Shown here: one piece after another, positions 51,487-64,000 of the stretch
Numbering within the stretch: position 1 is the stretch's first letter
Layout of the letters: each line of letters opens with the position of its first letter
Assembly (NCBI GenBank): GCA_003452935.1
Contig: DMMY01000005.1
Coordinates: forward strand, 57,858-121,857
Direction: 5' to 3'
DNA from: Elusimicrobiota bacterium
Lineage (GTDB): Bacteria; Elusimicrobiota; Elusimicrobia; UBA1565; UBA9628
Length of the DNA: 64,000 nt
Notes under the pieces: generated by a model
What the model was told of the DNA's origin: nothing
Seen by the model: the letters and a program-made list of their open reading frames with translations, nothing else
Databases searched by the model: none
Made by a program: the position numbers and the translations under genes

Positions 51487-53226
51487 CTAGGCTCCCAACT
51501 CCCGGCGCAAGGTCTCGGTCCAGACCCTTGGCCAGTCCGCCGAGGTGCGGGCGTAGCGCTCGACAAAGGCGGCGCGCGCGGCCCGGGTCTTGGGCTGTTG
51601 CCACCAAGCCTCGGGATCGTCCCATATCCGCAGCGCGTGGCGCGCCGCTGACTCGGGGTCCGGATGCACGACGCCCGCCTCGCGCAGAGCCTCGAAATAG
51701 GGCCGCGCTTCTTCGCGGCTTTCCCAAAGGCTGTCCTGCCAGAAGTGCACGCTGGGCTTGTCCAAGGCCAGTATCTCGGAGAAAGGCGTGCCGGGATAGT
51801 CCGTGACAGCCAGGCGCGTCGTTGAGAGACGTTGGCGCAGCGGAACCGAGGCTTGGTCGCGGCGCAGGTTCGGGAAGCGCCGGCTTAGACGCTGACGCAG
51901 GCCCCAGCCGTAGTCGTGAGGATAGGGCCGCAAGCAGGCCTGGCTGATCCGCGGGCCCAAGCCGGCCAGGAACCGCTCCAGCCACGAGAAATATTCTTCC
52001 CATTGCCAGCCCAGTGGGTGGGGAAAAAGGTGGTGCGCGTTGCGCACGTTCTCGACGGAGAAAATCAGGACGTCCTCGCCGCTGGACCGGGCCGGACTGG
52101 CGCCGGAGGATAATCGCGGGACCGGCAAGTCTTGGGCCCGGTTGTCTTGCGCCGAGGCGGACCAACCCCAGGTGAAAAACCGGTCGCAGACCTCGCGCTC
52201 GTGTCTTTCAGCCAGAGAATATTTCGCCGTTCCATATTGCCCGCCATGCTGAAGTCCCCAGAGCCGCGCGCCCCGTTCCACCCATTCCGCGGCCGCCAGC
52301 TTGAAGGTCTCATTGTAATAGAGCCCGGTGCTGGCCATGACGGCGCGCGGTACGTGGGAACTTTGACCCAAAGATGACTGCCGCGCCGCGGCAAAGCCTT
52401 CCAGCAAGATCGTCGGCAGAGCCCAAGGCAGGGAGCTGACGAGCAGCCGCTCGAACTCGTCTCGGGTCTTAAGTCCGCCCAGGCCCTGGTGGCGGGAGTC
52501 GTCGACAGGCGCCGCGCGCTGGGGGAAGCTGCCGGAAACCAGCAAAGGCAGGGCCTGGCCGCGCATCTTTTGGACCAATCGCCAAAGCAGGCGGCGGCCC
52601 GCGGGGTAGAGGTCGTCGGAAACTATTTTAGGCCTCAAAAGCGAGATCGCGCATCGGCTGGCAAATCCCAAAATGCGGTCGCTGGGATTGCGGGGCGGGA
52701 GCTTAGGCGTCGGAGGGGGCGCGTGCCTGCGAGCCGGGAAGTCCCGGCCCAGGAATCGGAATATGTGGGAGTAGAGCTGGAGATTGCAATGGTCCGTGTG
52801 GTAGAAGCGGTGGAAATCAGCCGCGTCGCGCGGGATGTAGAAGTCCTCAACGGCCAGGACCAAAGATCTTGCGTCCGGGTATTCCTTTAGAGCTTCCACG
52901 ATCTGGGTGTAGCGGTCAAAGAGCTGGTGCGTGTAATAGAGCAGCCAAGGGCCGGCGAGTATGCGCCAGTAGCGCGGGCTTAGCGCAACGCCATGAACCG
53001 CGTTGAGATAGTCGGCGAGCTTGGCCAAAAGTTCAGGCTGAAGATCGCCGCAATAGGCCGCGGCGCGCTCCAGGCGGGCTCTGTCGTCCCAGACATTGCC
53101 CAGCCGGCGGGAGCGGACGTCGGCGAGCCAGTCCGGATCATCGTAGCGGACGCACCAAGGGCCCAAGAGAAGCACCTCGTCTTGGGTGTCCCAGAACTCC
53201 TTGAGCGCCGTGGTGGCCAGGAACAA
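51487..53226 (-). CDS. Hypothetical protein (~580 aa) of a family seen in nonulosonic-acid/O-antigen loci; putative transferase
   Basis: Coding-like from LFLATTALKEFWDTQDEVLLLGPWC onward. A TTG about 10 nt downstream of an AGAAGGAGA Shine-Dalgarno is the likely start. The first ~84 track codons are Arg/Ser-rich and overlap the upstream gene. No catalytic motif is recognised. Confidence 0.4.
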   Translation of the reverse strand: MFLATTALKEFWDTQDEVLLLGPWCVRYDDPDWLADVRSRRLGNVWDDRARLERAAAYCGDLQPELLAKLADYLNAVHGVALSPRYWRILAGPWLLYYTHQLFDRYTQIVEALKEYPDARSLVLAVEDFYIPRDAADFHRFYHTDHCNLQLYSHIFRFLGRDFPARRHAPPPTPKLPPRNPSDRILGFASRCAISLLRPKIVSDDLYPAGRRLLWRLVQKMRGQALPLLVSGSFPQRAAPVDDSRHQGLGGLKTRDEFERLLVSSLPWALPTILLEGFAAARQSSLGQSSHVPRAVMASTGLYYNETFKLAAAEWVERGARLWGLQHGGQYGTAKYSLAERHEREVCDRFFTWGWSASAQDNRAQDLPVPRLSSGASPARSSGEDVLIFSVENVRNAHHLFPHPLGWQWEEYFSWLERFLAGLGPRISQACLRPYPHDYGWGLRQRLSRRFPNLRRDQASVPLRQRLSTTRLAVTDYPGTPFSEILALDKPSVHFWQDSLWESREEARPYFEALREAGVVHPDPESAARHALRIWDDPEAWWQQPKTRAARAAFVERYARTSADWPRVWTETLRRELGA

Positions 53227-53230
53227 AGAG

Positions 53231-53965
53231 CTATTTCTCCTTCTGGGGGACTCCGGCGTTGAGCGCGGAGAGTTCTGGATGCGCGCGCGCGTAAGCCAGG
53301 ACTTCCCGATAGGGCAGTATTTTGCGGTCCAGGCCCAGCTCAAGGTAGATCCGGCGGACCATGGCGAGGTCTTCCGGGGTGTCCACGGTCCAGCGCAAAT
53401 CCGAGTTGTCCTGCGCGTCGACGACGGAACAGGTCTTGAACAGCTCGGGCCTCTCCTTGAGCAGGAAATAGGTGACATGCTCGCGCGCCGGGGCGGAAGA
53501 GGCGAGAGAGTTCATGCGCTCGAGGGCCTCGCGGGTGAAGGCCTCGGCGTCAAGGCCGCGCGGAAACGTCCTGGGCAGGATATTGGAGGCGTAGTCGCAA
53601 GTTCCAGCGCTGTCTTCCAGAGCCTGGATGACGCGGTCGGTTTGCTCCGAGTCGATGAGGGGGCAGTCCGAGGTCACGCGGACCACGATGTCGGCGCAGG
53701 CTTCCCGCGCAGCCAAGGCGTAGCGGCTCAGGACGTCCGTTTCGCTGCCGCGAAAGGCCTGAGCGCCTTCGGCGCGGGCGATATCCGCGACCGGATCGTC
53801 GCTGGAATTGGTGGTGGTGGCCACCACGAGAGCGTCGGCCCGGCGGCAGTCGCGTAATCGGCGCAGCTGCTGGGCCAGCATGGGGCGGCCGGCCAAATCC
53901 ATGAGGACCTTGCCGGGCAGGCGCGTGGACGTCATGCGGGCCTGGACGATGATGACGCGCTTCAT
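53231..53965 (-). CDS. Cytidylyltransferase-family protein (SpsF/PseF-like, CTP_transf_3)
   Basis: N-terminal MKRVIIVQARMTSTRLPGKVLMDLAGRPML is the SpsF/FlmC-type signature; 244 aa. Confidence 0.75.
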   Translation of the reverse strand: MKRVIIVQARMTSTRLPGKVLMDLAGRPMLAQQLRRLRDCRRADALVVATTTNSSDDPVADIARAEGAQAFRGSETDVLSRYALAAREACADIVVRVTSDCPLIDSEQTDRVIQALEDSAGTCDYASNILPRTFPRGLDAEAFTREALERMNSLASSAPAREHVTYFLLKERPELFKTCSVVDAQDNSDLRWTVDTPEDLAMVRRIYLELGLDRKILPYREVLAYARAHPELSALNAGVPQKEK

Positions 53966-54462
53966 GAGGGCCGTTCTGGAGCCAGCTTAAGTTCGAGCCG
54001 GTACGCGACCGTTCCTTTGATTCGAACCAGCTTTTGAAATTGGAAGCCGGCCTTTATGAAAACAACGACAGAGGCGATATTCTCCGGCTTGATATGGGCG
54101 ACAAGGCGGCGCAGGCGTCTTCCTTTGATGAGGGAGGGAATGCGCTTGAGCATGGCGCCTGCAACGCCTTGGCCTCTGCAGGATGGCGCCACCGTGATGC
54201 TGACCTCGGCGACGCCGGCCGCGGCATGATCCAGGCGCAATTGGCCCAGGCTGTCGCCTTCAGGGCCGCAGGCCATGAGGATCAGGCTGCGCGGATCATC
54301 AAGTTTGGCCGCGAACCAGCGTTGATGGACCGGCCAGGAAATCCGCCCCGGGGTCAAGGAGTGGCGGCGGCTCAACGCGTCATTGCGCCAGGCCCAAATC
54401 GAGCGGCTGTCGCTTTCCTCGGCCGGACGCCAGTTGCGAAAAATATTGGGCTTAGCGCACAT
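53962..54462 (-). CDS. GNAT-family N-acetyltransferase (PseH-like candidate)
   Basis: 166 aa with an acetyl-CoA binding motif RGQGVAGAMLKRIPSLIKG (R/Q-x-x-G-x-G/A). Sits between the NeuB-like synthase and the cytidylyltransferase, as in Pse loci. Confidence 0.65.
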   Translation of the reverse strand: MCAKPNIFRNWRPAEESDSRSIWAWRNDALSRRHSLTPGRISWPVHQRWFAAKLDDPRSLILMACGPEGDSLGQLRLDHAAAGVAEVSITVAPSCRGQGVAGAMLKRIPSLIKGRRLRRLVAHIKPENIASVVVFIKAGFQFQKLVRIKGTVAYRLELKLAPERPS

Positions 54463-55501
54463 CGATTTTCTCCAGGAGATGGTGGGCGGGCAGGCTTTGC
54501 CGGGCGCGGCGTCCCAGAAGTTTTGGAAAGAGCCCGCAGTCCAGGCCCGTGTCGCGCCTGCCGCCCCGGCGCAGAACCGCGAGGTTGTCCCGCGTCAAGC
54601 GCGCGCCCTCGGGAATGGGAAGCAGGGTGAATATGCCGCGCCGGTACTCCCGCAGCTCGAGCTCGACGCTATGCGGGACCTTGACTCCGCTGCCCAGCAT
54701 GGACTCGGCTTGCCGGACGGACGCGACCATTCGGCCCAATTCGTCAGGCTCCAGTGCGTAGGAATGGTCCGGACCCCGCAGCCGGCGCGAAAGCGTGAAG
54801 TGCTTTTCCAGGAGATTGGCTCCCAAGGCCGCGGCCGCGACCGGGGCCACGGCGCAGTCCGCGCTGTGATCGGAGAGGCCCACCGGCACTTTGTAGCGGG
54901 CTTTGAGCCAAGGGATGACATTGAGGTTGAGCGATTTCGGCGGAGCCGGGTATTTGGCCGTGCACTGCATGAGGCAAACGCGGCTTCTGGGCAGGCCTTT
55001 CAGGGCGCGGTCGATCTCCCCGGCGTCCGCGGCTCCGGTCGAGAGAATCAGAGGCTTTCCCAGGCGCGCCACGTGGCGCAGCAAAGGGGCATGAGTCATC
55101 TCATAGGAAGCGATCTTGAAGGCCGGGACAAGCGCCCGGAGCCGGTCCGCGCAGTCCTCGTCAAAGGGCGTGGCCATGAACAGGATGCCGCGCCGTTGGC
55201 AGCGCTTGTAAAGCCTGGGCAGCCAGGACCAGGGCATCTCCATATCCTCGATGACGCGGTAGATGCTCTTCTGGACGCCTAGGCTCTTGAGATAGCGGGG
55301 CCGGACCTCGAGTTTTGGGTAGAGGGTTTGGGCGCGAAAGAGTTGGAATTTGACCGCGTCGGCCCCGGCCGAGGCCGCCACGTCGATGAGGCGCAAGGCT
55401 TGGCTGAGGTTGCCGTCGTGATTGGAGCCGGCCTCGGCGATGATGAAGCAGGGGTGGCCGTCGCCTACGCATCGCCCGCCGATGCGCACCGAGCGCGCCA
55501 T
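54452..55501 (-). CDS. pseI: NeuB-family nonulosonic acid synthase (pseudaminic/legionaminic/N-acetylneuraminic acid synthase) with a C-terminal SAF domain
   Basis: The internal start MARSVRIGGRCVGDGHPCFIIAEAGSNHDGNL is the canonical NeuB N-terminus. Also PFDEDCADRL and KIASYEMTH. The ATG at about 55501 overlaps the upstream stop. The symbol is assigned from Pse-pathway neighbours, not from intrinsic specificity. Confidence 0.85.
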   Translation of the reverse strand: MARSVRIGGRCVGDGHPCFIIAEAGSNHDGNLSQALRLIDVAASAGADAVKFQLFRAQTLYPKLEVRPRYLKSLGVQKSIYRVIEDMEMPWSWLPRLYKRCQRRGILFMATPFDEDCADRLRALVPAFKIASYEMTHAPLLRHVARLGKPLILSTGAADAGEIDRALKGLPRSRVCLMQCTAKYPAPPKSLNLNVIPWLKARYKVPVGLSDHSADCAVAPVAAAALGANLLEKHFTLSRRLRGPDHSYALEPDELGRMVASVRQAESMLGSGVKVPHSVELELREYRRGIFTLLPIPEGARLTRDNLAVLRRGGRRDTGLDCGLFPKLLGRRARQSLPAHHLLEKIDVR

Positions 55502-55502
55502 G

Positions 55503-56468
55503 TTATGGCCGCCTCGGCGATTGGCCAAGCACAAGGCGCGCCACGCGCAAAGCTCCATGGCCGTCGATGAGGCCCCGGCCGCTTTCGGACATGCGCGCGC
55601 GCAGGGCAGGGTCCCGGTCGATCCGGCGCAGGGCCGCGCGCAAATGGACGGCCAGTCCCGGGGCCGCGGCTTTTCCGGCCAACAGCACGGTCCCGGCCTC
55701 TGCCATGCCTAGGACGTTGCCCTTCTGGTCCGGGCCCCGCTCCACCACAGCCGCCGGCGTGCCGGTGAAAGCCAGTTCATAAATCGTCTGACCGCCGGCC
55801 GTCACGGCCGCGTCGCAAGACTCAAGCAGAGGGCGCAGGCTCATAAGCCCGCGATGCCAAACCACGGCCGTCGCGGCAACGGAAGCGGGTTTCGGTGCCA
55901 GCATCCCGATGGCAACATGTATTTCGGCCTGGGGTAAGGCTTGTTGCGCGGCTTTGATGACCGTCTCGGTCAGTGCCTCGCAAATGCCGCCTCCCAAGGT
56001 AATGAGCAGCCGTCGTATTCTGGGACTGATGCGGCGGCGAAGGCTCGGGCTCCAATACTCCTGGCGCAAGGGAAGAAATTTGGGCCCCAGGAGCAGGCCT
56101 GCGGCCGGGCCGGCTGAGAAGCGCAACCCGCGCGCGTAGACATGGCCGTTGAGAATCCAGTCCGCCGGGGCGCGGCATGTGCCGAGGTCATCGAAAGCGA
56201 GCAGGTTGCGGCTCTGGCGCCGCAAACGTTGCCAATCCTGGGGCGAGAAGCGATATGAGTCAGCCGCCAGGATGTCCCAGCGACGGCTGCTTAAGGCGGC
56301 CAGGTCAAAGCCTAAAGACCGCACCCAGAAGCGGCAGGAGGCGGGCACGTCCACGAAAACCGGGCGCGCGCCGAGCTCGCGAAAGGCCTGGGCCAGGGCG
56401 GCGCTGCGGCCCAGGTGCCCCAAGCCCACGTTCGGACCGCCGTCAGCGGCTAGGGCAACTGATCTCAT
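55503..56468 (-). CDS. pseG: PseG-like UDP-sugar hydrolase (UDP-2,4-diacetamido-2,4,6-trideoxy-beta-L-altropyranose hydrolase family, GT-B fold)
   Basis: N-terminal MRSVALAADGGPNVGLGHLGRSAALAQAF matches the PseG signature (R-x-D-x-x-x-x-x-G-x-GH-x-x-R). The C-terminal Gly-rich GT-B region is present. Confidence 0.65.
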   Translation of the reverse strand: MRSVALAADGGPNVGLGHLGRSAALAQAFRELGARPVFVDVPASCRFWVRSLGFDLAALSSRRWDILAADSYRFSPQDWQRLRRQSRNLLAFDDLGTCRAPADWILNGHVYARGLRFSAGPAAGLLLGPKFLPLRQEYWSPSLRRRISPRIRRLLITLGGGICEALTETVIKAAQQALPQAEIHVAIGMLAPKPASVAATAVVWHRGLMSLRPLLESCDAAVTAGGQTIYELAFTGTPAAVVERGPDQKGNVLGMAEAGTVLLAGKAAAPGLAVHLRAALRRIDRDPALRARMSESGRGLIDGHGALRVARLVLGQSPRRP

Positions 56469-57535
56469 GCGCGGGCGATTTGGGGCTGGGCTTCCTGAAT
56501 CAGCGGGCTGATCATTTGCCGCAGGTCGTCAGCCGTAAGCCAGGAGTCGTTGGCGTCGCTGGTATAGCGGAAACCCTCCGGCGGAGCCGAGCCGTTGTGC
56601 CGGCGGGCCTCTCCCCACCAGGGAAAGCTCGGCTTGACGAGGTACATGGGGCCCAGGTCCAGGGTCCGGGCCGCTTCTTCCTCGGTGAGCAGGGCCTCAT
56701 GAAGTTTTTCCCCGGGCCGGATGCCGATGACCTTGGTGCTGCATTCCGGGGCCATGGCCTTGATCAGGTCGAGTATGCGCATGCTCGGGATCTTGGGCAC
56801 GAAGACCTCCCCGCCCTGCATGAGCTCCAGGGCCCGCAGGACCAGGCGCACCCCGCCGTCCAGTGTGATCCAGAAGCGGGTCATGCGCTCGTCGGTCACC
56901 GGCAGAACGCCTTGGGAGCGCTGGCGCAGGTAAAGCGGGATGACGCTGCCCCGGCTGCCCACCACGTTGCCGTAGCGCACCACGCTCAGCCGGGTCTGCG
57001 TGGCCGCGGCATAGGAGTTGCCGGCGATGAAGAGCTTCTCGGCGCAGAGCTTGGTCGCGCCGTAGAGGTTGATGGGATTGACCGCCTTGTCCGTGGAAAG
57101 GGCCACGACTTTGGAGACCTTCTCGTCGATGGCGGCGTTGATGATGTTCTCGCTGCCCATGACGTTGGTGAGTACCGCCTCGAAGGGATTGTACTCCAGG
57201 GTAGGCACCTGCTTGAGGGCCGCGGCGTGCACCACGAAGTCCACCCCGTGAAAAGCGCGCCGCAGGCGCGGCAGGTCGCGCACATCGCCGATGAAAAAGC
57301 GCAGGCGGGAGTCCTTGAAGGCCGCGGCCATCTCGGACTGCTTGAGCTCGTCGCGGCTGAAGACTATGAGCTTGCGCGCCTTGGAGAGCTCAAGAGCCGC
57401 GCCTATGAAGCGTTTGCCGAAGGAGCCGGTGCCGCCCGTGACCAGAACGGTGCGGCCGTCCAGTATTTTGAAATCCGCGCGCGTGAGGGAGCGGATAAAG
57501 TCCGGGGAATCGGCGCGGCGGGCGGGTTTCGTCAT
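56465..57535 (-). CDS. pseB: UDP-N-acetylglucosamine 4,6-dehydratase (inverting), PseB/FlaA1/CapD-type
   Basis: FKILDGRTVLVTGGTGSFGKRFI and later YGATKLCAEKL (YxxxK) are both characteristic. First gene of the long operon, with a GAGAGG Shine-Dalgarno 6 nt upstream. Confidence 0.9.
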   Translation of the reverse strand: MTKPARRADSPDFIRSLTRADFKILDGRTVLVTGGTGSFGKRFIGAALELSKARKLIVFSRDELKQSEMAAAFKDSRLRFFIGDVRDLPRLRRAFHGVDFVVHAAALKQVPTLEYNPFEAVLTNVMGSENIINAAIDEKVSKVVALSTDKAVNPINLYGATKLCAEKLFIAGNSYAAATQTRLSVVRYGNVVGSRGSVIPLYLRQRSQGVLPVTDERMTRFWITLDGGVRLVLRALELMQGGEVFVPKIPSMRILDLIKAMAPECSTKVIGIRPGEKLHEALLTEEEAARTLDLGPMYLVKPSFPWWGEARRHNGSAPPEGFRYTSDANDSWLTADDLRQMISPLIQEAQPQIARA

Positions 57536-57608: not shown

Positions 57609-59105
57609 CTAAGGACGGGAACGGTTTTTGAGGCCGGGTTGAAACCCCGCCCTCCGCAATTCCCGGCTGATGACCTTTGCAGCGACCGCAGTGCCGGCCG
57701 CGGACCAGTGGACCGGGTCGGACTTGCCGTAAAGCCAGACCGGCTGAGGCCCTGCTACGACTTTCCGTAGTGCCGGAAGAAGGTCAATAAAAAAAAAGCC
57801 GTTTTTTGAAGCGAAGTCCTGGAGCCCGTTGCGCTGCGCTTCGGCGCGCCGATCCTGCGCGGCGTCGGCCGGGACAAGCAAGTCCCGGTATATCTCGTAT
57901 GACGAGGGGTTGTACATGATGGCGAGCCGGGGCGGCTTCGGCAGACCGCGGACCCGGTCCGCCAAAACGCGATACTGAGCCAAGGTCTCATCCAAACCCG
58001 CGGAAATCCATTTATCGTAAAGTTCGGGCCTTAGAGCGAAATGGGAATAGGCCGGATAAGCGAATAAATGGTCGATTTTTCCAGCAGTTGCTGATCCGCC
58101 CAGGGGCGCCTCGGAACTTGAATGGCGGCCTATCATCCGGGCTAAGCGGTCCTTGAGCTGGCGCACTATGTAATAGGAAAGGGCCAAGGTTAAATCGCGG
58201 CTGCGCAGGCGCAGGAGGATATCCGGTCCTTGCGGGATGATCAGGGAGCGAAAGCGCGGATCGCGCAGGAGCCGGAGGTTCAAATCCGCAAAAGCAAATC
58301 GATCGGTGAAGCTTCCTTGGCCGGCCAATGCCGCATCCTCGTTGATTTCGCTGGCGTCGTTGCCCGAATAGAACTCGACGATCAAGAGACGCGGTTTTTT
58401 GACGAGCGCATAAGCGAGCAAGGCTTGAACTTTTTGGCGGGGACTGTAGCTGCTGGAGGAGAGGTTCCAGAGGGATGGATAGTCCTTCTTGACCGTCTCC
58501 AAGCAAGAGGGCATGCCTGTTCCTTGCAGGACCGAGTCCCCGCTGAAGAAGATGTCGACGTTCGGGGCGCCATTATAGAAGCCTCGATTGAGATTGAGAT
58601 AGCCGGTCTCGTCGACTGTCGTCTCGTAGAGGGGGTTTCGGGGGTCGTGATCGTAGCGGTAACGGTGCAGGGACCCAGGCGTACGTCTGAAGAATAGGGG
58701 ATCGTCCGTGGCGTTTTCGAAGAAGTCGTAACGAGCCTCTTGAAGCACGGACATGACCCGCTTCTGAAGAGACTTTCCGAGTTCCAGGCTGGGGGAAATC
58801 CGCAGATGCAGGGCTTTTTCCCAATAAGGAAGAGTTTCCGCCGCTAGGACGTAGAAGACCAGGGTCTGGGCCAGGATGATGCCGGCCTGCAGAAACCAGG
58901 GCCGGCGCCCTAAGCGCAGCCATGCAATTATGCTTGCGCCCATGCCTGTCAGAATGAATATGGAATCCCGCCAGGGATGAACAATGAAGCTGACGCCGAA
59001 GATCAGCCAGGAGGCGAGGATGGCGGTCAGGGTCGCGAATGCGGCCGCCCTGCCGGGCTGCGGCGGAGGGGAAGTCATAGGCGTTTGTTTAGACGACAGG
59101 TCCAT
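57609..59105 (-). CDS. Membrane-anchored SGNH/GDSL-like hydrolase family protein (possible glycan O-acyl esterase/transferase)
   Basis: 3 N-terminal TM helices, then block I FFSGDSVLQGTG (GDS) and a C-terminal DPVHWSAAG (the DxxH-like block), characteristic of the SGNH fold. Confidence 0.45.
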   Translation of the reverse strand: MDLSSKQTPMTSPPPQPGRAAAFATLTAILASWLIFGVSFIVHPWRDSIFILTGMGASIIAWLRLGRRPWFLQAGIILAQTLVFYVLAAETLPYWEKALHLRISPSLELGKSLQKRVMSVLQEARYDFFENATDDPLFFRRTPGSLHRYRYDHDPRNPLYETTVDETGYLNLNRGFYNGAPNVDIFFSGDSVLQGTGMPSCLETVKKDYPSLWNLSSSSYSPRQKVQALLAYALVKKPRLLIVEFYSGNDASEINEDAALAGQGSFTDRFAFADLNLRLLRDPRFRSLIIPQGPDILLRLRSRDLTLALSYYIVRQLKDRLARMIGRHSSSEAPLGGSATAGKIDHLFAYPAYSHFALRPELYDKWISAGLDETLAQYRVLADRVRGLPKPPRLAIMYNPSSYEIYRDLLVPADAAQDRRAEAQRNGLQDFASKNGFFFIDLLPALRKVVAGPQPVWLYGKSDPVHWSAAGTAVAAKVISRELRRAGFQPGLKNRSRP

Positions 59106-59295: not shown

Positions 59296-59997
59296 ATGTT
59301 TAAAATTAAACGCATCCTCATCATTGATGATGACGCCGACTATGGGCCTATGCTTTGCCGCAGGTTCCAGACCATTGGTTTTAAAACCATGCTGGCGGCC
59401 GAGGGGCAGGAGGGTCTAGACAAGGCCGAGTCTTTTCGACCGAGCGTTATCCTCTTAGATATCCATATGCCGGAGATGGATGGCTTGAAGGTTTTGCAAC
59501 AATTGAAGCGAGATTGGTGCTTGTCTGCAATTCCCGTCATCCTGATCACCGGCCAGGAAATCATAGATAGCGTTCTGGATGCCGTTGCTGAACGCTTTCA
59601 AACCGGGCCAATATACCGTAAGAGCGAACCTCTCGCTGCTCTGACGCAGAGGGTGGAAAAGATTATCTCATTGTTGTCTTGCGAGCGACAGGCTTTGCCA
59701 AATGGGCTTCGGCGCCGGGATGTCGTTCAGATTGACACGCGCCGCAAAGCGGTGAAATTGGGAAGCCAGCCATTGCTTCGTTTGGCAGGAAAACGCTTCG
59801 ATTTGTTCTGCGCCTTGTTGTGCAAGGAGAGGCGCGTGAGTCGGCAGGAACTTTTGATGGAAGTCTGGGATGAGAACACGGATATCAATACGGTCGGCGT
59901 CACCATGCAGCGGCTGCGCGAGGATTTAAGGGGGTTTCCCTGCTTTTGCATCAAGTCATATCGAGATGGTTATGAGTTGGTCCTGCGCTTTGGGTAG
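59296..59997 (+). CDS. OmpR/PhoB-type response regulator (receiver + winged-helix DNA-binding domain)
   Basis: Receiver with ILIIDDDADYG, the phospho-acceptor LLDIHMPEMDGLKV and IPVILITG. C-terminal trans_reg_C-like winged helix (RQELLMEVWDENTDINTVGVTMQRLREDL). AT-rich codon usage, unlike the rest of the window. Confidence 0.8.
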   Translation: MFKIKRILIIDDDADYGPMLCRRFQTIGFKTMLAAEGQEGLDKAESFRPSVILLDIHMPEMDGLKVLQQLKRDWCLSAIPVILITGQEIIDSVLDAVAERFQTGPIYRKSEPLAALTQRVEKIISLLSCERQALPNGLRRRDVVQIDTRRKAVKLGSQPLLRLAGKRFDLFCALLCKERRVSRQELLMEVWDENTDINTVGVTMQRLREDLRGFPCFCIKSYRDGYELVLRFG

Positions 59998-60032: not shown

Positions 60033-60047
60033 ATAACAAGTTGTTAT
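60033..60047. promoter_or_regulatory. Perfect palindrome ATAACAAgTTGTTAT between the response-regulator and NHL genes (operator or weak hairpin candidate)
   Basis: 7-bp arms with a 1-nt spacer, read directly from the sequence. 36 nt after the response-regulator stop and about 40 nt before the GTG start of the NHL gene. Confidence 0.4.
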
Positions 60048-60083
60048 CGACCGGGCAGAGCTTTTCCTTTTAGAATTTGCGCA

Positions 60084-63000
60084 GTGGAAAAAGATGAGCG
60101 CGGTTGGGCGTCGAATTCGGGCCGTGGCGCAAAGGTTGATTTAAGTTTTTGGTCTTCCTTAATAATGGGCGCGGTTCTTGCCGTGCTTTTTCCTCAATCG
60201 TTGGCCGCTCAGACATTGGAAGCCCATGTCATTGATGAGTCCGGGGCTCGGATTTCCGCGGGAACGACCGAGCTTGTCTTCTCGCAAGGACAGGCTCTTG
60301 TAGGGACGAGCCAGTCTGGATCAACAAGTATTGATTTTGGGTTCCTTAATGGGCTGCCCGTAGAAGCTATTTCCCCTATGGCGGGCAATCCTCCTTTCAG
60401 CATGGTGGGAGTAAGTTCTGTTGCGGTCAATTGGCTTGCCAACGGAAACCCAGCAGGGACCTTGTATTATGCCCAAATATCCCCATCGGCTGATTTCTCA
60501 TCCGTAACGGCCTCCTCGCAGACCTATAATGAAAGCGCGGCCTTTATTGGCCTGAACGCGAATACCCTATACTATGTTCATGCTGCGGCTTATTCCATCT
60601 TAACGTCCACGTGGTGCATGTTTTCGCCAATCGGTTCGACATACACCTTAGCCGTGGCCCCCGGTTCGCCGCCAGATGGAATTTCGACTTTTACGGCGGT
60701 CTATACGAGCAGCTTCACGTTGAATTGGTCCTCTGGGACCCAGTCAACCGGCTATAACTCTGATGATACCCTCTATCTTGCCCAAATTTCTACCAAGGCG
60801 AGTTTTGTGCCGCTTTGGGCATCGAGCCAGACCCTCAATTTGAATGCAATTTTTACCAATCTTAATGAGAGTAAGAAATATTATGCCCAGGTGCAGGCAG
60901 TAAACGCCAATAATATACCGAGTAGCTTTACGATTCTTGGGTCAGCGTTCACCCAATCTTTTCCCATGCCGCTTGGAATTATCAATACCGTTGCTGGTAA
61001 TGGAGACTATAGTGATAGTGGCGACGGTGGCCCTGCTACTAGTGGTGCAATGTATGACCCTCAGGGTGTGGCTGTGGATTCAACTGGAAATGTTTATATT
61101 GCGGATTCGCTTGGCCAACGTGTCCGCAAGGTTGACACAAGCGGAATCATCACGACCGTTGCCGGCAATGGACAATCGGGTTCTTGGGGTGACGGCGGTT
61201 TAGCTACCAGCGCTACATTAAATGGTCCTCGTGGCGTAACCGTGGATTCCATTGGGAACTTCTATATCGCCGATGAGTGGAATCACCGTATCCGCAAGGT
61301 GGATGCATCCGGAATCATTACGACAGTTGCAGGTAATGGAAGTCAAGGTTTTAGCGGTGATGGCGATCAAGCTACTAGCGCCAGCCTTCATAACCCATTT
61401 AGTGTTGCCGTGGATGAGATTGGAAATATCTATATTGGAGATTTAAGTTTTCACGTACGTAAAGTGGGCACCGACGGCGTCATTCATACAGTTGCCGGTA
61501 ATGGCAGTCGTGGGTATAGCGGTGACGGGGGACCGGCTACCAGCGCAGCGATGGGCCCTCCCCATATCGCGGTAGATGAATATGGGAATATTTATATAGC
61601 GGATGGAGACAATAACCGTATCCGTAAAGTGGACACTAATGGAATCATTGAAACTATTGCCGGCACTGGAAATTGGGGCTATAGCGGAGACGGCGGGCAG
61701 GCGACTAGCGCCGAACTATACAACCCCGTAGCTGTGGCCGTGGATTCACACGGGGATGTCTATATGTCGGATAATGCGAACGTGATCCGCAAAGTGGATG
61801 CCAATGGAATCATTAATACTATTGCCGGTACTTTCCCATATCCAGGTTATAGCGGAGATGGCGGCTTAGCTACCAGCGCTAAATTTAGTTTCGCATATGG
61901 TGTGGCCATAGATGCGTTCCGGAATATCTATGTCTCGGACCGGTACAATCGCCGTATTCGGCAGGTGGCTGTTTCCTCTTCCACACTCTCTCTGCCAGTT
62001 CTTAGTGCCTCGGCACAAAGCCCAACCTCAATACAGTGGTCTTGGAGCGGCTTGAACTATGCTGCGGCTTACAGGATGGTAAGCTCAACAGGTGGTGCCA
62101 TCTCAAGCGTCTTAAGCAATCGGACCACTTACTTTATTGAGACTAACATTTCGACCAACACGCTTTATGCCCGCGAATTGGTGGCTATCAATTCAATGGG
62201 TTCATCCACATCTGCCGTGGTTTCCACATACACACTCTCCGCCGCCCCCATTGATTTGGCCATGGTCAGCGTGGCCTCATCTGCGGTTCACCTGACTTGG
62301 AACGCCAACGGCAATCCAAACACGACCAACTTCGAGGTGTCCTATACGACTTCGACTGGCTTTGCTGTAGACTCGGATATCTCTACTGCACCTTTAGTCA
62401 CGTCGACCTTTACCACGGTGGATAGCTTGGCCAGCGGAACTTCTTATTATTTTCGTGTGCGCGCCTACAATGGCGGCGGCTTTGCCACGGCTTTCTCCTT
62501 AATCGTTTCGACCTACATGCCGGTCCTGCAATCTTCAGTGACGGCAATGACGCCGTCTTCCGGCACCATAGGAGCCACCCTCGCAATTTTCGGCTCAGGG
62601 TTCGGGACTGGCGACGGCGACAATACGCGGGTGCGTTTCGGCATAAATGGTTCGACGGCCCCGATCTCTTTGTGGACCGATACCCAAATATCAGCGATAG
62701 TTCCGTTGCTCTCTTCAGGGGCCTATGCCGTGGCTATCGAGCGTCAGACCGGCTCTACTGTGACCATAACCAGCGCCGGAACTTTTACGGTGGCGACTCC
62801 GCATATTTCCACCATAACGCCGTCTTTTGGCAATGCGAGTTTCGATATCGAAGGCTCCGGCTTCGGCGAATATGTGGATACAGGCACTACAAAGGTGACT
62901 TTCAACGGTACGCCCGTGGATTTATCTGCCTGGCACGATGCCATGATCCGGGTGGTGCCGGACGATATCTCGGTGGGAACCTATACCGTTGTCGTGGTTC

Positions 63001-63890
63001 TGTCGCCTTCAGTCGGGACCGTGCAAAGCAACGAATTTTTGTTCGAAGTCACGGAAGGGATGAAGAGCCTCGGGTTGCTGGCGGGGGGATCGAGTGGTGT
63101 GGTCGCTAGGCCGCCCGCGTTCTATCAGGCCAACTTGCGCTTGAGGGTCTTGCACGGCGGCAAAGTGACGGCGCCTAGCCGTGCCTCCGTGACCGTGCCG
63201 CCATGGGCCCTGGACGCCGACACGAGCGTGACCATTGATCGCGGCGCGGCGTCGGGAGCGGCTCATGACGCGCGCGAGCAGGCCCGGATATCCGGCGCTT
63301 TGGGCGGCGTGGGCGTCCCGGTAGAGTTCGGGCCCCGGGGCGCGCGCTTCTCGGTTCCCGTGATCATCGAATTGCCCTACGACCCGGCGGATATCCCGCT
63401 GGGGCAGGAATATAAGATCGCGGTGCACTATTGGGACCAAGCGGCCGGCGTGTGGCTGGCCCTGCAAAGCGATGTGGACACGGCGCGCCACCGCGTGCGC
63501 GCCAGGACGGATCATTTCTCGGTGTATCAGCCGCTTTTGCCGGGCGTCTATTCCGCGGCCAACGCGTCGGCGGCGTTCGGTCTTCGCGATGTGTACGCAT
63601 TCCCGAATCCGGCGCGGAACAACCGTTCCGTGACGATCCGCAGCCAAGTGGGCTTGGCCGATCAGGTGGACGTCAATATCTACGATATCGCAGGGCGCGT
63701 CATGCGTTCAGGAAACATCAGTTCGTGGCAGATTCTCGATGACGGCAACGGCAAAGGCCCTCAATTTACCTATGACTATGTTTGGGACACAGGAGGCATC
63801 GGCTCTGGTGTCTACATCTACTCTATTACCGCCAGGAAGGCCGGGTCTTCACCCATTCGTAAAACCGGCAAGGTGGGGGTGATCAAGTGA
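60084..63890 (+). CDS. Secreted NHL-repeat / fibronectin-III-like multidomain protein with a type IX secretion (Por_Secre_tail/FlgD-Ig-like) C-terminal sorting domain
   Basis: Signal peptide (…LIMGAVLAVLFPQSLAAQ). Two Fn3-like modules (…NWSSGTQSTGYNSD…). Six tandem NHL repeats (I-TVAGNG…SGDGG-ATSA-L-P-GVAVD--GN-YIAD--N-RIRKVD). More Fn3/IPT-like modules follow (GSGFG…RVRFG). A C-terminal ~90-aa CTD YAFPNPARNNRSVTIRSQ…VDVNIYDIAGRVMRS…GVYIYSITARKAGSSPIRKTGKVGVIK matches the T9SS sorting domain consensus. The start is a GTG at 60084 or the ATG at 60165. Confidence 0.8.
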   Translation: MEKDERGWASNSGRGAKVDLSFWSSLIMGAVLAVLFPQSLAAQTLEAHVIDESGARISAGTTELVFSQGQALVGTSQSGSTSIDFGFLNGLPVEAISPMAGNPPFSMVGVSSVAVNWLANGNPAGTLYYAQISPSADFSSVTASSQTYNESAAFIGLNANTLYYVHAAAYSILTSTWCMFSPIGSTYTLAVAPGSPPDGISTFTAVYTSSFTLNWSSGTQSTGYNSDDTLYLAQISTKASFVPLWASSQTLNLNAIFTNLNESKKYYAQVQAVNANNIPSSFTILGSAFTQSFPMPLGIINTVAGNGDYSDSGDGGPATSGAMYDPQGVAVDSTGNVYIADSLGQRVRKVDTSGIITTVAGNGQSGSWGDGGLATSATLNGPRGVTVDSIGNFYIADEWNHRIRKVDASGIITTVAGNGSQGFSGDGDQATSASLHNPFSVAVDEIGNIYIGDLSFHVRKVGTDGVIHTVAGNGSRGYSGDGGPATSAAMGPPHIAVDEYGNIYIADGDNNRIRKVDTNGIIETIAGTGNWGYSGDGGQATSAELYNPVAVAVDSHGDVYMSDNANVIRKVDANGIINTIAGTFPYPGYSGDGGLATSAKFSFAYGVAIDAFRNIYVSDRYNRRIRQVAVSSSTLSLPVLSASAQSPTSIQWSWSGLNYAAAYRMVSSTGGAISSVLSNRTTYFIETNISTNTLYARELVAINSMGSSTSAVVSTYTLSAAPIDLAMVSVASSAVHLTWNANGNPNTTNFEVSYTTSTGFAVDSDISTAPLVTSTFTTVDSLASGTSYYFRVRAYNGGGFATAFSLIVSTYMPVLQSSVTAMTPSSGTIGATLAIFGSGFGTGDGDNTRVRFGINGSTAPISLWTDTQISAIVPLLSSGAYAVAIERQTGSTVTITSAGTFTVATPHISTITPSFGNASFDIEGSGFGEYVDTGTTKVTFNGTPVDLSAWHDAMIRVVPDDISVGTYTVVVVLSPSVGTVQSNEFLFEVTEGMKSLGLLAGGSSGVVARPPAFYQANLRLRVLHGGKVTAPSRASVTVPPWALDADTSVTIDRGAASGAAHDAREQARISGALGGVGVPVEFGPRGARFSVPVIIELPYDPADIPLGQEYKIAVHYWDQAAGVWLALQSDVDTARHRVRARTDHFSVYQPLLPGVYSAANASAAFGLRDVYAFPNPARNNRSVTIRSQVGLADQVDVNIYDIAGRVMRSGNISSWQILDDGNGKGPQFTYDYVWDTGGIGSGVYIYSITARKAGSSPIRKTGKVGVIK
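60979..61965 (+). repeat. Six tandem ~174-nt coding repeats (NHL repeats) inside the 60084..63890 gene
   Basis: Repeated peptide units IINTVAGNG.../IITTVAGNG.../VIHTVAGNG.../IIETIAGTG.../IINTIAGTF... with a period of about 58 aa. The nucleotide units are imperfect copies (gttgc[ct]ggtaatgg…cgtatccg[ct]aa[ag]gtgga). Confidence 0.7.
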
Positions 63891-64000
63891 AGAGGATCAT
63901 CCTGTTGGGCTGGCTCGTGATTCTGCCCAAACTGGCCTGGGCTGGCGAAACGGCCGCTTTCCTCAAGATAGGCGTGGGCGCCCGTCCCCTGGGCTTGGGC
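63887..64000 (+). CDS. Partial (5' end only) PorV/PorQ-family outer-membrane protein candidate (T9SS-associated), truncated by the window end
   Basis: GTG start overlapping the upstream stop (GTGA). Signal peptide MKRIILLGWLVILPKLAWA, then ETAAFLKIGVGARPLGLG, which matches the conserved N-terminal FLKIGVGARA-GMGGA block of PorV/PorQ/UPF0164-type barrels. Only 38 codons are visible. Confidence 0.4.
   Translation, partial: MKRIILLGWLVILPKLAWAGETAAFLKIGVGARPLGLG

Follow-up and report, generated by a model that had tools for sequence, protein, structure and literature searches.

Operon-encoded pairs of T9SS-like cargo tails and PorV/PorQ-family barrels in Elusimicrobiota: a candidate surface-display module with a predicted self-cleaving joint

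We analyzed a window of 64,000 nucleotides from the genome of an uncultured Elusimicrobiota bacterium from groundwater (GenBank assembly GCA_003452935.1, contig DMMY01000005.1, positions 57,858 to 121,857 of the forward strand). At its 3' end lies a gene for a large, adhesin-like modular protein, hereafter the cargo, whose stop codon overlaps the start of a gene for an outer-membrane beta-barrel. The cargo ends in a C-terminal domain (CTD) that resembles the type A sorting domain of type IX secretion systems (T9SS), the barrel falls within the PorV/PorQ family by profile, and the tail–barrel pair itself is a conserved unit across Elusimicrobia. We lean towards reading the two genes as a dedicated cell-surface display or anchor module with a releasable joint at an HF↓S motif. 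What is new is the occurrence of T9SS-type parts as putative dedicated, operon-encoded cargo–anchor pairs with a predicted self-cleaving joint, in a phylum without reported T9SS. The features on which this reading rests are the following.

60084..63890, + strand: cargo open reading frame (ORF), 1268 aa from a GTG start; public gene callers use an ATG at 60165, giving 1241 aa
63153..63536 (aa 1024–1151), + strand: ZU5/GAIN-like (MAIN-like) beta-sandwich domain, from Pfam ZU5, a local hidden Markov model (HMM) and an AlphaFold2 (AF2) model
63513..63521, + strand: predicted autoproteolytic HF↓S site, His1144-Phe1145-Ser1146 (cat ttc tcg), from conservation and the model
63576..63887 (aa 1165–1268), + strand: T9SS type-A-like CTD (TIGR04183), ~105 aa
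63887..64000, + strand: first 38 codons of the PorV/PorQ-family barrel gene, whose GTG overlaps the cargo stop and which is cut by the window end

Profile searches supported the assignment of the cargo tail as a T9SS type-A-like CTD. The whole cargo passed TIGR04183 (Por_Secre_tail; cut-off 23) narrowly with 25.6 bits (E = 9e-6), the isolated tail scored 31.9 bits (E = 9e-8), and the tails of five homologous cargoes scored 23.8–31.5 bits, all of them passing (six of six with the window cargo). The tails also matched the CTD regions of PorZ and PorU, and a weak, sub-threshold match to PF13585 (type B CTD) was seen in one homologue only. The motifs FPNP, IYD..GR and GSGVYIY, an extra insert DDGNG.G.Q.TYD..WD, and a basic KTGKVGVIK tail are all readable in the domain. 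In a 300-aa AF2 model, the CTD is predicted to be a compact Ig-like beta-sandwich, with eight strands over residues 201–298 (pLDDT 88–96), and both this model (Foldseek) and the sequence profile matched the PorU CTD (6za2_A). A word-indexed search with the 116-aa tail returned 11 fragments only, and an exhaustive phmmer search was needed to reveal the family: among 1.84 billion representative proteins, it gave 809 matches at E ≤ 1e-3 and 500 at E ≤ 1e-10. The tail match ended within a few residues of the C-terminus in all 150 of the best representative matches, which were 118–5827 aa long.

The extra DDGNG loop (window 63738–63800, aa ~1219–1239) is near-invariant in the Elusimicrobia-type tail. 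Since type A profiles leave this loop unaligned, the T9SS profile scores of the CTD are marginal. The loop could be a determinant for recognising the cognate barrel, or a metal-binding site.

The barrel fragment encoded in the window (MKRIILLGWLVILPKLAWAGETAAFLKIGVGARPLGLG) matched no profile by itself. The full gene (915 nt, 304 aa; L001:13723-14637) was obtained from an 80-kb groundwater contig (L001) and from GCA_003509925.1 (L002), which are identical to the window over the 597 compared 3'-end bases. Its 304-aa product matched NF033709 'PorV/PorQ family protein' over profile positions 3–326 of 326 with 161.4 bits (cut-off 90, E = 4e-47), and fell below the orthologue cut-offs for PorV (NF033710, 60.4 vs 250), PorQ (NF033711, 107.7 vs 220, the best-scoring of these models) and PorV2 (NF052325, 81.7 vs 325). 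Judged by these models, the barrel truly belongs to the PorV/PorQ family but is orthologous to none of the named T9SS barrels. With a profile built from 46 homologues, Flavobacterium johnsoniae PorV (6h3i_F) was matched in the PDB at E = 2e-25, and the N-terminal motif of the barrel aligned with the same segment of that protein. The AF2 model (pLDDT 90.3, pTM 0.86) has 14 strands and an N-terminal plug-like segment; its top PDB matches were PorV 8gl6_F (E = 4e-14, TM 0.77) and 6h3i_F (TM 0.76–0.77 for the two), followed by TodX and FadL. A 100% identical protein occurs in an 'Elusimicrobia bacterium' metagenome-assembled genome (MAG), and all named homologues come from Elusimicrobia/Elusimicrobiota. 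The NCBI pipeline labels some proteins of the pair 'PorV/PorQ family protein' and 'T9SS type A sorting domain-containing protein'; these labels are thus already public, and a description of the pair's biology was not found in the literature.

To define the pair beyond the window, we read the neighbourhoods of six barrels 44–58% identical to the window barrel. The sixth contig begins just 5' of the barrel; in the other five, the upstream proteins were a 197-aa protein, a 219-aa protein, a 724-aa Kelch propeller, a 1123-aa malectin/glycoamylase/discoidin protein and a 2408-aa TIG protein, and all five end in the same CTD. A CTD scan of one genome per species, for which the first alignment proved too diverse and which was repeated with seven closer sequences, found 79 loci, ~70 of them from Elusimicrobia MAGs, and all of them were scored for barrel, CTD and ZU5-like domain by local HMMs. 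The barrel gene lay immediately downstream on the same strand in 70 of the 72 informative Elusimicrobia-type loci. In the window, the cargo stop TGA (63888–63890) overlaps the GTG at 63887, forming GTGA, and 52 of the cargo–barrel junctions are such 4-bp ATGA/GTGA overlaps; the others are 0–9 nt apart, bar one 1-bp and one 19-bp overlap. The richest genomes carry six, five, four and four pairs, and the closed 3.1-Mb Elusimicrobia genome CBDIQC010000001.1 carries at least three. The tail is constant among complete cargoes spanning 136–2408 aa, and 43 cargoes contained 58 Pfam families, including NHL, Kelch, Fn3, Big_13, TIG, Big_7 and polysaccharide deacetylase; the tiny cargoes (136–219 aa) have little beyond a signal peptide and the tail. 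Furthermore, CTD and barrel distances were correlated (r = 0.67), a value reached by none of 2000 within-genome partner shuffles, which fits cognate pairs. Weaker CTD matches in Gemmatimonadota, Cloacimonadota, Bacteroidales and Flavobacteriales, from phyla with T9SS, had no adjoining barrel.

There were two exceptions to adjacency. At L033:762-2590, cargo and barrel are separated by two genes, of 175 and 436 aa; at L066:329-3435, a C39-like protein follows the tail-bearing gene, and there is no barrel within 6 kb. Two MAGs labelled Armatimonadota, L047 (JAUSGG010000248.1) and L061 (JBFMFD010000145.1), have typical Elusimicrobia-type pairs, as do several MAGs labelled only 'bacterium'; the CTD is 51–53% identical in such cases. 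Mis-binning, mislabelling or horizontal transfer could account for them.

Some annotations would place the barrel elsewhere. It matches Pfam UPF0164 and, weakly, Toluene_X, and the name 'long-subunit fatty acid transport protein' was given to some homologues by JGI; TodX and FadL were the next structural matches after PorV, and FadL, TodX and treponemal UPF0164 share with it the 14-strand fold with an N-terminal plug. Were it an ordinary hydrophobic small-molecule channel of this type, the last domain of the cargo would be a structural Ig-like domain and the adjacency of the genes would be meaningless. We regard this as very improbable. Sequence and structure likeness to FadL and TodX is much weaker than to PorV (E = 6e-5 for TodX vs 2e-25; TM ~0.6 vs 0.77), and those channels are without paired tail-bearing cargo genes. 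In addition, such a channel would not lead one to expect the adjacency, the frequent 4-bp overlap or the co-diversification of tail and barrel, nor a tail confined to the very C-terminus of otherwise very different proteins.

These results bear on an initial annotation of the window that had been made from the letters alone. It described a 1268-aa NHL/Fn3 protein with a C-terminal sorting domain, and the ORF, the domains and the quoted tail (aa 1165–1268) are all present, as is the GTGA overlap with the downstream start. Its view of the tail as T9SS-type agrees with the narrow pass of TIGR04183, although the cut-off of Pfam PF18962 was missed, and its guess of a PorV/PorQ-like downstream gene was borne out once the full product was available. 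Chance does not account for these matches. The idea of a cargo–shuttle pair held in part: the barrel does belong to the PorV/PorQ family by profile, but it fails the orthologue models, and every cargo comes with a barrel of its own, several such pairs being present per genome. The annotation had missed that the host lies outside the phyla known for T9SS, that the pair is conserved, and that the cargo has a ZU5/GAIN-like domain with an HFS motif.

Reviews (including PMC10202324) report T9SS genes and CTD proteins to be absent outside the Fibrobacterota–Chlorobiota–Bacteroidota (FCB) phyla, and state that CTD-bearing cargo and T9SS genes always occur together; T9SS is likewise placed in Bacteroidota/FCB phyla only, both by reviews and by a survey covering 1,528 diderm genomes. 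Elusimicrobiota is a separate phylum outside the FCB group in the NCBI taxonomy. We found no literature linking Elusimicrobia with T9SS or PorV, and secretion and surface proteins are unmentioned in a groundwater Elusimicrobia genomics preprint.

Within known systems, the closest parallels are PorU–PorV and PorZ–PorQ of Porphyromonas and Flavobacterium, in which a type A CTD protein keeps its tail: PorU is retained on PorV, and PorZ on PorQ, via uncleaved CTDs, so that each is held on the surface by a 14-strand barrel of the PorV/PorQ family (PMC10202324). The pair described here differs in several ways: every cargo has its own barrel and many pairs occur in one genome; adhesin-like or enzyme-like passengers, not components of the machinery, make up the cargoes; at 304 aa (vs 345–402 aa) the barrel is shorter, and it fails all three orthologue cut-offs; and the host is a member of Elusimicrobiota, with a tail that has the extra invariant DDGNG loop. 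Gene order, on the other hand, is alike: in P. gingivalis and F. johnsoniae, porU is found directly upstream of porV. SprB–SprF resembles the pair in another respect: the gene of a type B CTD cargo is clustered with that of a dedicated PorV-like barrel (PorP/SprF), which is needed for the cargo and is its proposed anchor, and the type B CTD is probably not cleaved (PMC10202324). Here, however, the tail is type-A-like (TIGR04183, not TIGR04131/PF13585) and the barrel belongs to the PorV/PorQ family, not PorP/SprF. The PorV shuttle (6h3i, 8gl6) is the best solved match of the barrel both by sequence and by structure, and the two have a common N-terminal segment, AAFL...G.GAR..G.G...NPAG. Unlike the barrel here, PorV is encoded once per genome, handles dozens of cargoes and acts together with SprA.

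One alternative, in line with the initial annotation, is that a canonical T9SS is encoded elsewhere in the genome, in which case the barrel would be a PorV-type shuttle to SprA/Sov, and a PorU sortase would remove the tail and might attach the cargo to a surface glycan, possibly of the Pse type (the pseudaminic acid type). The tail passing TIGR04183, the barrel passing the PorV/PorQ family model and PorV in the translocon complex being its best structural match all speak for this, as does the setting, since the pair lies inside a glycan locus, with further sugar-modifying genes downstream, and a bona fide PseB is encoded nearby (485 bits vs an orthologue cut-off of 408). We nevertheless consider it unlikely. 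The barrel fails the PorV, PorQ and PorV2 models; one-to-one operon pairing with several pairs per genome contrasts with one PorV for many dispersed cargoes; T9SS is confined to Bacteroidota/FCB in the surveys cited above; no PorU-like or PorZ-like gene was present in any neighbourhood read; and a predicted autoproteolytic site built into the cargo would make a sortase unnecessary.

The glycan part of that alternative had been raised by the initial annotation, which asked whether the cargo is anchored through the Pse-type glycan encoded next door. PseB belongs to a nonulosonic-acid gene set (window 51487–57535, - strand) whose PseG-like, PseI/NeuB-like and PseH-like proteins and cytidylyltransferase are all well below their cut-offs, and the sugar may differ from canonical pseudaminic acid; beside these genes is one for a LIC12162-family transferase (433 bits). 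Within 6 kb of the 72 related loci, we found no homologues of the window's PseB, PseG-like, NeuB/PseI-like, PseH-like, cytidylyltransferase or LIC12162 genes (0 of 72). The contexts of related pairs vary widely, and no recurring glycan or C25-peptidase family was present among their clustered neighbours. A functional link between the pair and the Pse-type locus was therefore rejected on the 0 of 72 count: the adjacency is particular to the window genome and lends no support to glycan anchoring, although it is compatible with it.

What stands in the place of sortase processing may be the ~130-aa domain directly ahead of the tail. Pfam ZU5 scored 19.3 bits on the window cargo, just short of the gathering score of 21, and 23.7 and 28.4 bits on two homologues, and matched at E ≤ 1e-3 in 26 of 43 cargoes, while the local HMM for the domain gave 133 bits on the window cargo. 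Among PDB entries, its profile picked out ZU5 domains from ZO-1 and from ankyrins, and the AF2 model (pLDDT 85) had UNC5b and ankyrin ZU5 as top Foldseek matches (E = 2e-7), with TM 0.6–0.65 against single ZU5 domains. As far as a predicted model can tell, the fold evidence for ZU5 is clear. The domain precedes the tail in 62 of 73 loci. Its HFS motif lies in the turn between the last two strands (169–176 and 179–185 of the 300-aa model), 23–37 residues N-terminal of the PNP motif of the CTD; across 42 homologues, F and S were invariant and H was at least 90% conserved, and HFS was present in all 61 genome loci having the domain. Autoproteolysis occurs at HFS in PIDD-type ZU5 domains, in Nup98 and in GAIN domains. 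ZU5-superfamily autopeptidases were predicted in bacterial surface proteins by Zhang et al. (2012), and Edman degradation has revealed that bacterial GAIN-like 'MAIN' domains cleave at HF↓S (Brogan and Rudner 2026, bioRxiv 10.64898/2026.05.12.724683). According to the same preprint, MAIN domains lie between passenger domains and a cell-surface anchor, and cleavage allows release of the passenger.

By analogy with these proteins, we infer that the cargo cleaves itself at HF↓S, and the domain with its motif suggests self-cleavage instead of sortase processing. The likeness extends to the whole layout: MAIN and bacterial ZU5 proteins also have a signal peptide, adhesion or enzyme domains, an autoproteolytic beta-sandwich with HFS in its last turn, and a surface anchor. 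As the ZU5-like domain occupies the position it has in MAIN proteins, the CTD and barrel would be the anchor. In the MAIN proteins described so far, mostly from Bacillota, the anchor is by contrast a sortase signal, a cell-wall-binding domain or an SLH domain; in the present case, a T9SS-like tail and an outer-membrane barrel would take this role in a diderm. Neither this kind of ZU5/MAIN anchor combination nor Elusimicrobia is mentioned by Zhang et al. (2012) or Brogan and Rudner (2026).

The display module that we favour would then work as follows. Sec would export the cargo, and its CTD would dock onto its cognate partner, the 14-stranded PorV/PorQ-like barrel whose gene follows in translational coupling. 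The tail would remain bound to the barrel, so that the Fn3/NHL/TIG passenger would be kept on the external side of the outer membrane. The ZU5/GAIN-like domain would cut its own chain between Phe and Ser of His-Phe-Ser, leaving the passenger joined to its anchor only through a shared beta-sheet, and the cleaved passenger could be shed, for example under force. Crossing of the outer membrane by the passenger might be provided by an undetected SprA-like translocon, by type II secretion, or by the pair itself.

Several points weigh against this proposal. The tail passes TIGR04183 narrowly and scores 21–25.5 bits with Pfam PF18962, below the gathering score of 27. Tandem inheritance or duplication of both genes would equally give adjacency and co-diversification. 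The ZU5-like domain is not seen in 11 of the 73 cargoes, in two of these only through the contig end; cleavage is therefore not obligatory. Passage of a folded 130-kDa protein through a plugged 14-strand barrel is implausible, and a translocon is therefore missing from the model. Finally, if SprA, GldKLMN, PorU or PorZ is encoded in the genome, the barrel could be a shuttle and not a permanent anchor.

Another reading is that the pair is a self-contained two-partner export system in which the PorV-like barrel is both translocator and anchor, possibly aided by BAM and with a FadL-type lateral opening, and no other T9SS part takes part. Such a system would represent the T9SS substrate-handling module in minimal or ancestral form. 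It would account for the pair being the only constant unit, with no third gene universal in the 72 loci, for the tight translational coupling of the two genes, for their occurrence in a phylum without reported T9SS, and for the smallest cargoes being barely more than signal peptide and tail. We think it quite unlikely, as the model of the barrel shows no more than 14 strands and includes a conserved plug-like segment at the N-terminus, and no PorV or FadL relative is known to translocate proteins. Tentatively, Elusimicrobiota may lack the T9SS core altogether, the pair being a free-standing secretion and display system in which the self-cleaving joint replaces the PorU sortase; this is possible but doubtful, and we would not put it higher. 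If true, the pair would be the T9SS cargo-handling module in a minimal or ancestral state, and diderms would have a new way of anchoring proteins at the outer membrane.

The pair is of interest for T9SS evolution on either side of this question. A single, tight subtype of T9SS-like tail is shared by at least 500 distinct protein clusters, and in the sampled genomes (almost all Elusimicrobiota) every gene with such a tail is coupled to a PorV-like barrel of its own. Should these genomes lack the T9SS core, the tail–barrel interaction would be an independent, older module later recruited by T9SS, and the origin of cargo recognition would become testable; should they possess it, the range of T9SS grows by one phylum, in which each cargo, unusually, has a barrel to itself. 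In both cases, a diderm outer-membrane anchor would have been found for the first time beside an autoproteolytic MAIN/ZU5 release joint, and the two genes could serve as a compact surface-display cassette.

The remaining parts of the cargo are those of a modular secreted protein, which runs from a signal peptide through two Fn3-like domains, an NHL propeller, two Fn3 and two TIG domains to the ZU5-like domain, a linker and the CTD.

60084..60209 (aa 1–42), + strand: predicted Sec signal peptide, with cleavage after ...FPQSLAA and before QT, inferred by reading the sequence
aa 104–295, + strand: two Fn3-like domains, from profile searches
60969..61973 (aa 296–630), + strand: six-bladed NHL beta-propeller (PF25021 TEN_NHL, 173.9 bits; PF01436 NHL, 73.2 bits)
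61992..63059, + strand: two Fn3 (aa 637–808) and two IPT/TIG (aa 819–992) domains, from Pfam

The propeller consists of six repeats of ...TVAGNG...GDGG.ATSA......VAVD..GN.YI.D..N..IRKV (TEN_NHL/NHL E = 6e-51). PF00041 fn3 scored 65.7 bits in the cargo (E = 4e-18), with its best stretch at aa 721–808, and PF01833 TIG scored 49.3 bits over two stretches (E = 5e-13), the better at aa 818–902. The start codon of the cargo (GTG at 60084 vs ATG at 60165) is ambiguous. The 1241-aa product is on record as an exact match on 13 contigs, whereas a look-up of the 1268-aa GTG-start product gave no record. With the GTG start, a long n-region precedes the hydrophobic core of the signal peptide; with the ATG start, the signal peptide is very short and has no basic residue. 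A promoter-like match occurs at 60047–60076, immediately 5' of the GTG; the scan for promoters and terminators gave nothing informative.

Among the neighbouring genes, one regulator recurs beside the pair.

59296..59997, + strand: OmpR-family response regulator, 233 aa (Response_reg and Trans_reg_C), 86 nt upstream of the cargo ORF

Its NCBIfam matches were of the RpaB/MtrA/PhoB type, all under the orthologue cut-offs, and no histidine kinase gene was present among the neighbours read around it. The regulator probably controls the pair. Homologous regulators stand upstream of the cargo in 9–12 related Elusimicrobia loci, a recurrent position that suggests a three-gene regulated module.

A universal third component was considered and rejected, as clustering of the neighbours gave only the response regulator (12 loci) and a C39-like protein (10 loci). 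The latter, ~700 aa long, has an N-terminus resembling a beta-propeller, followed by an Fn3/Ig domain and, at the C-terminus, a Peptidase_C39_2-like cysteine peptidase domain (25.7 bits vs 24); it is encoded at L008:8912-10933, L010:8906-10954, L019:1918-4296 and seven further loci. It adjoins minimal ~350-aa cargoes consisting of signal peptide, ZU5 and CTD, and could be a processing protease for this smallest-cargo subtype.

Two further genes lie around the pair of the window. Just past the 3' end of the window and downstream of the barrel, the apparent operon continues with a third gene (L001:14634-16220), which encodes a 475–528-aa secreted protein with two near-identical ~57-aa repeats, TL.(D/N)ST.TVLGADATGQSAKFAYGVSAGSITASS..FTATG..QYSLTTSSG..VGG; its N-terminus weakly matched a Bdellovibrio 'mosaic adhesive trimer' fibre protein (29 bits, cut-off 60), and the gene is not conserved beside other pairs. 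Between the Pse genes and the response regulator, the gene at 57609–59105 (- strand) encodes a 498-aa protein that matched no NCBIfam family and has N-terminal membrane segments and a weak Pfam match to ALGX (SGNH-like).

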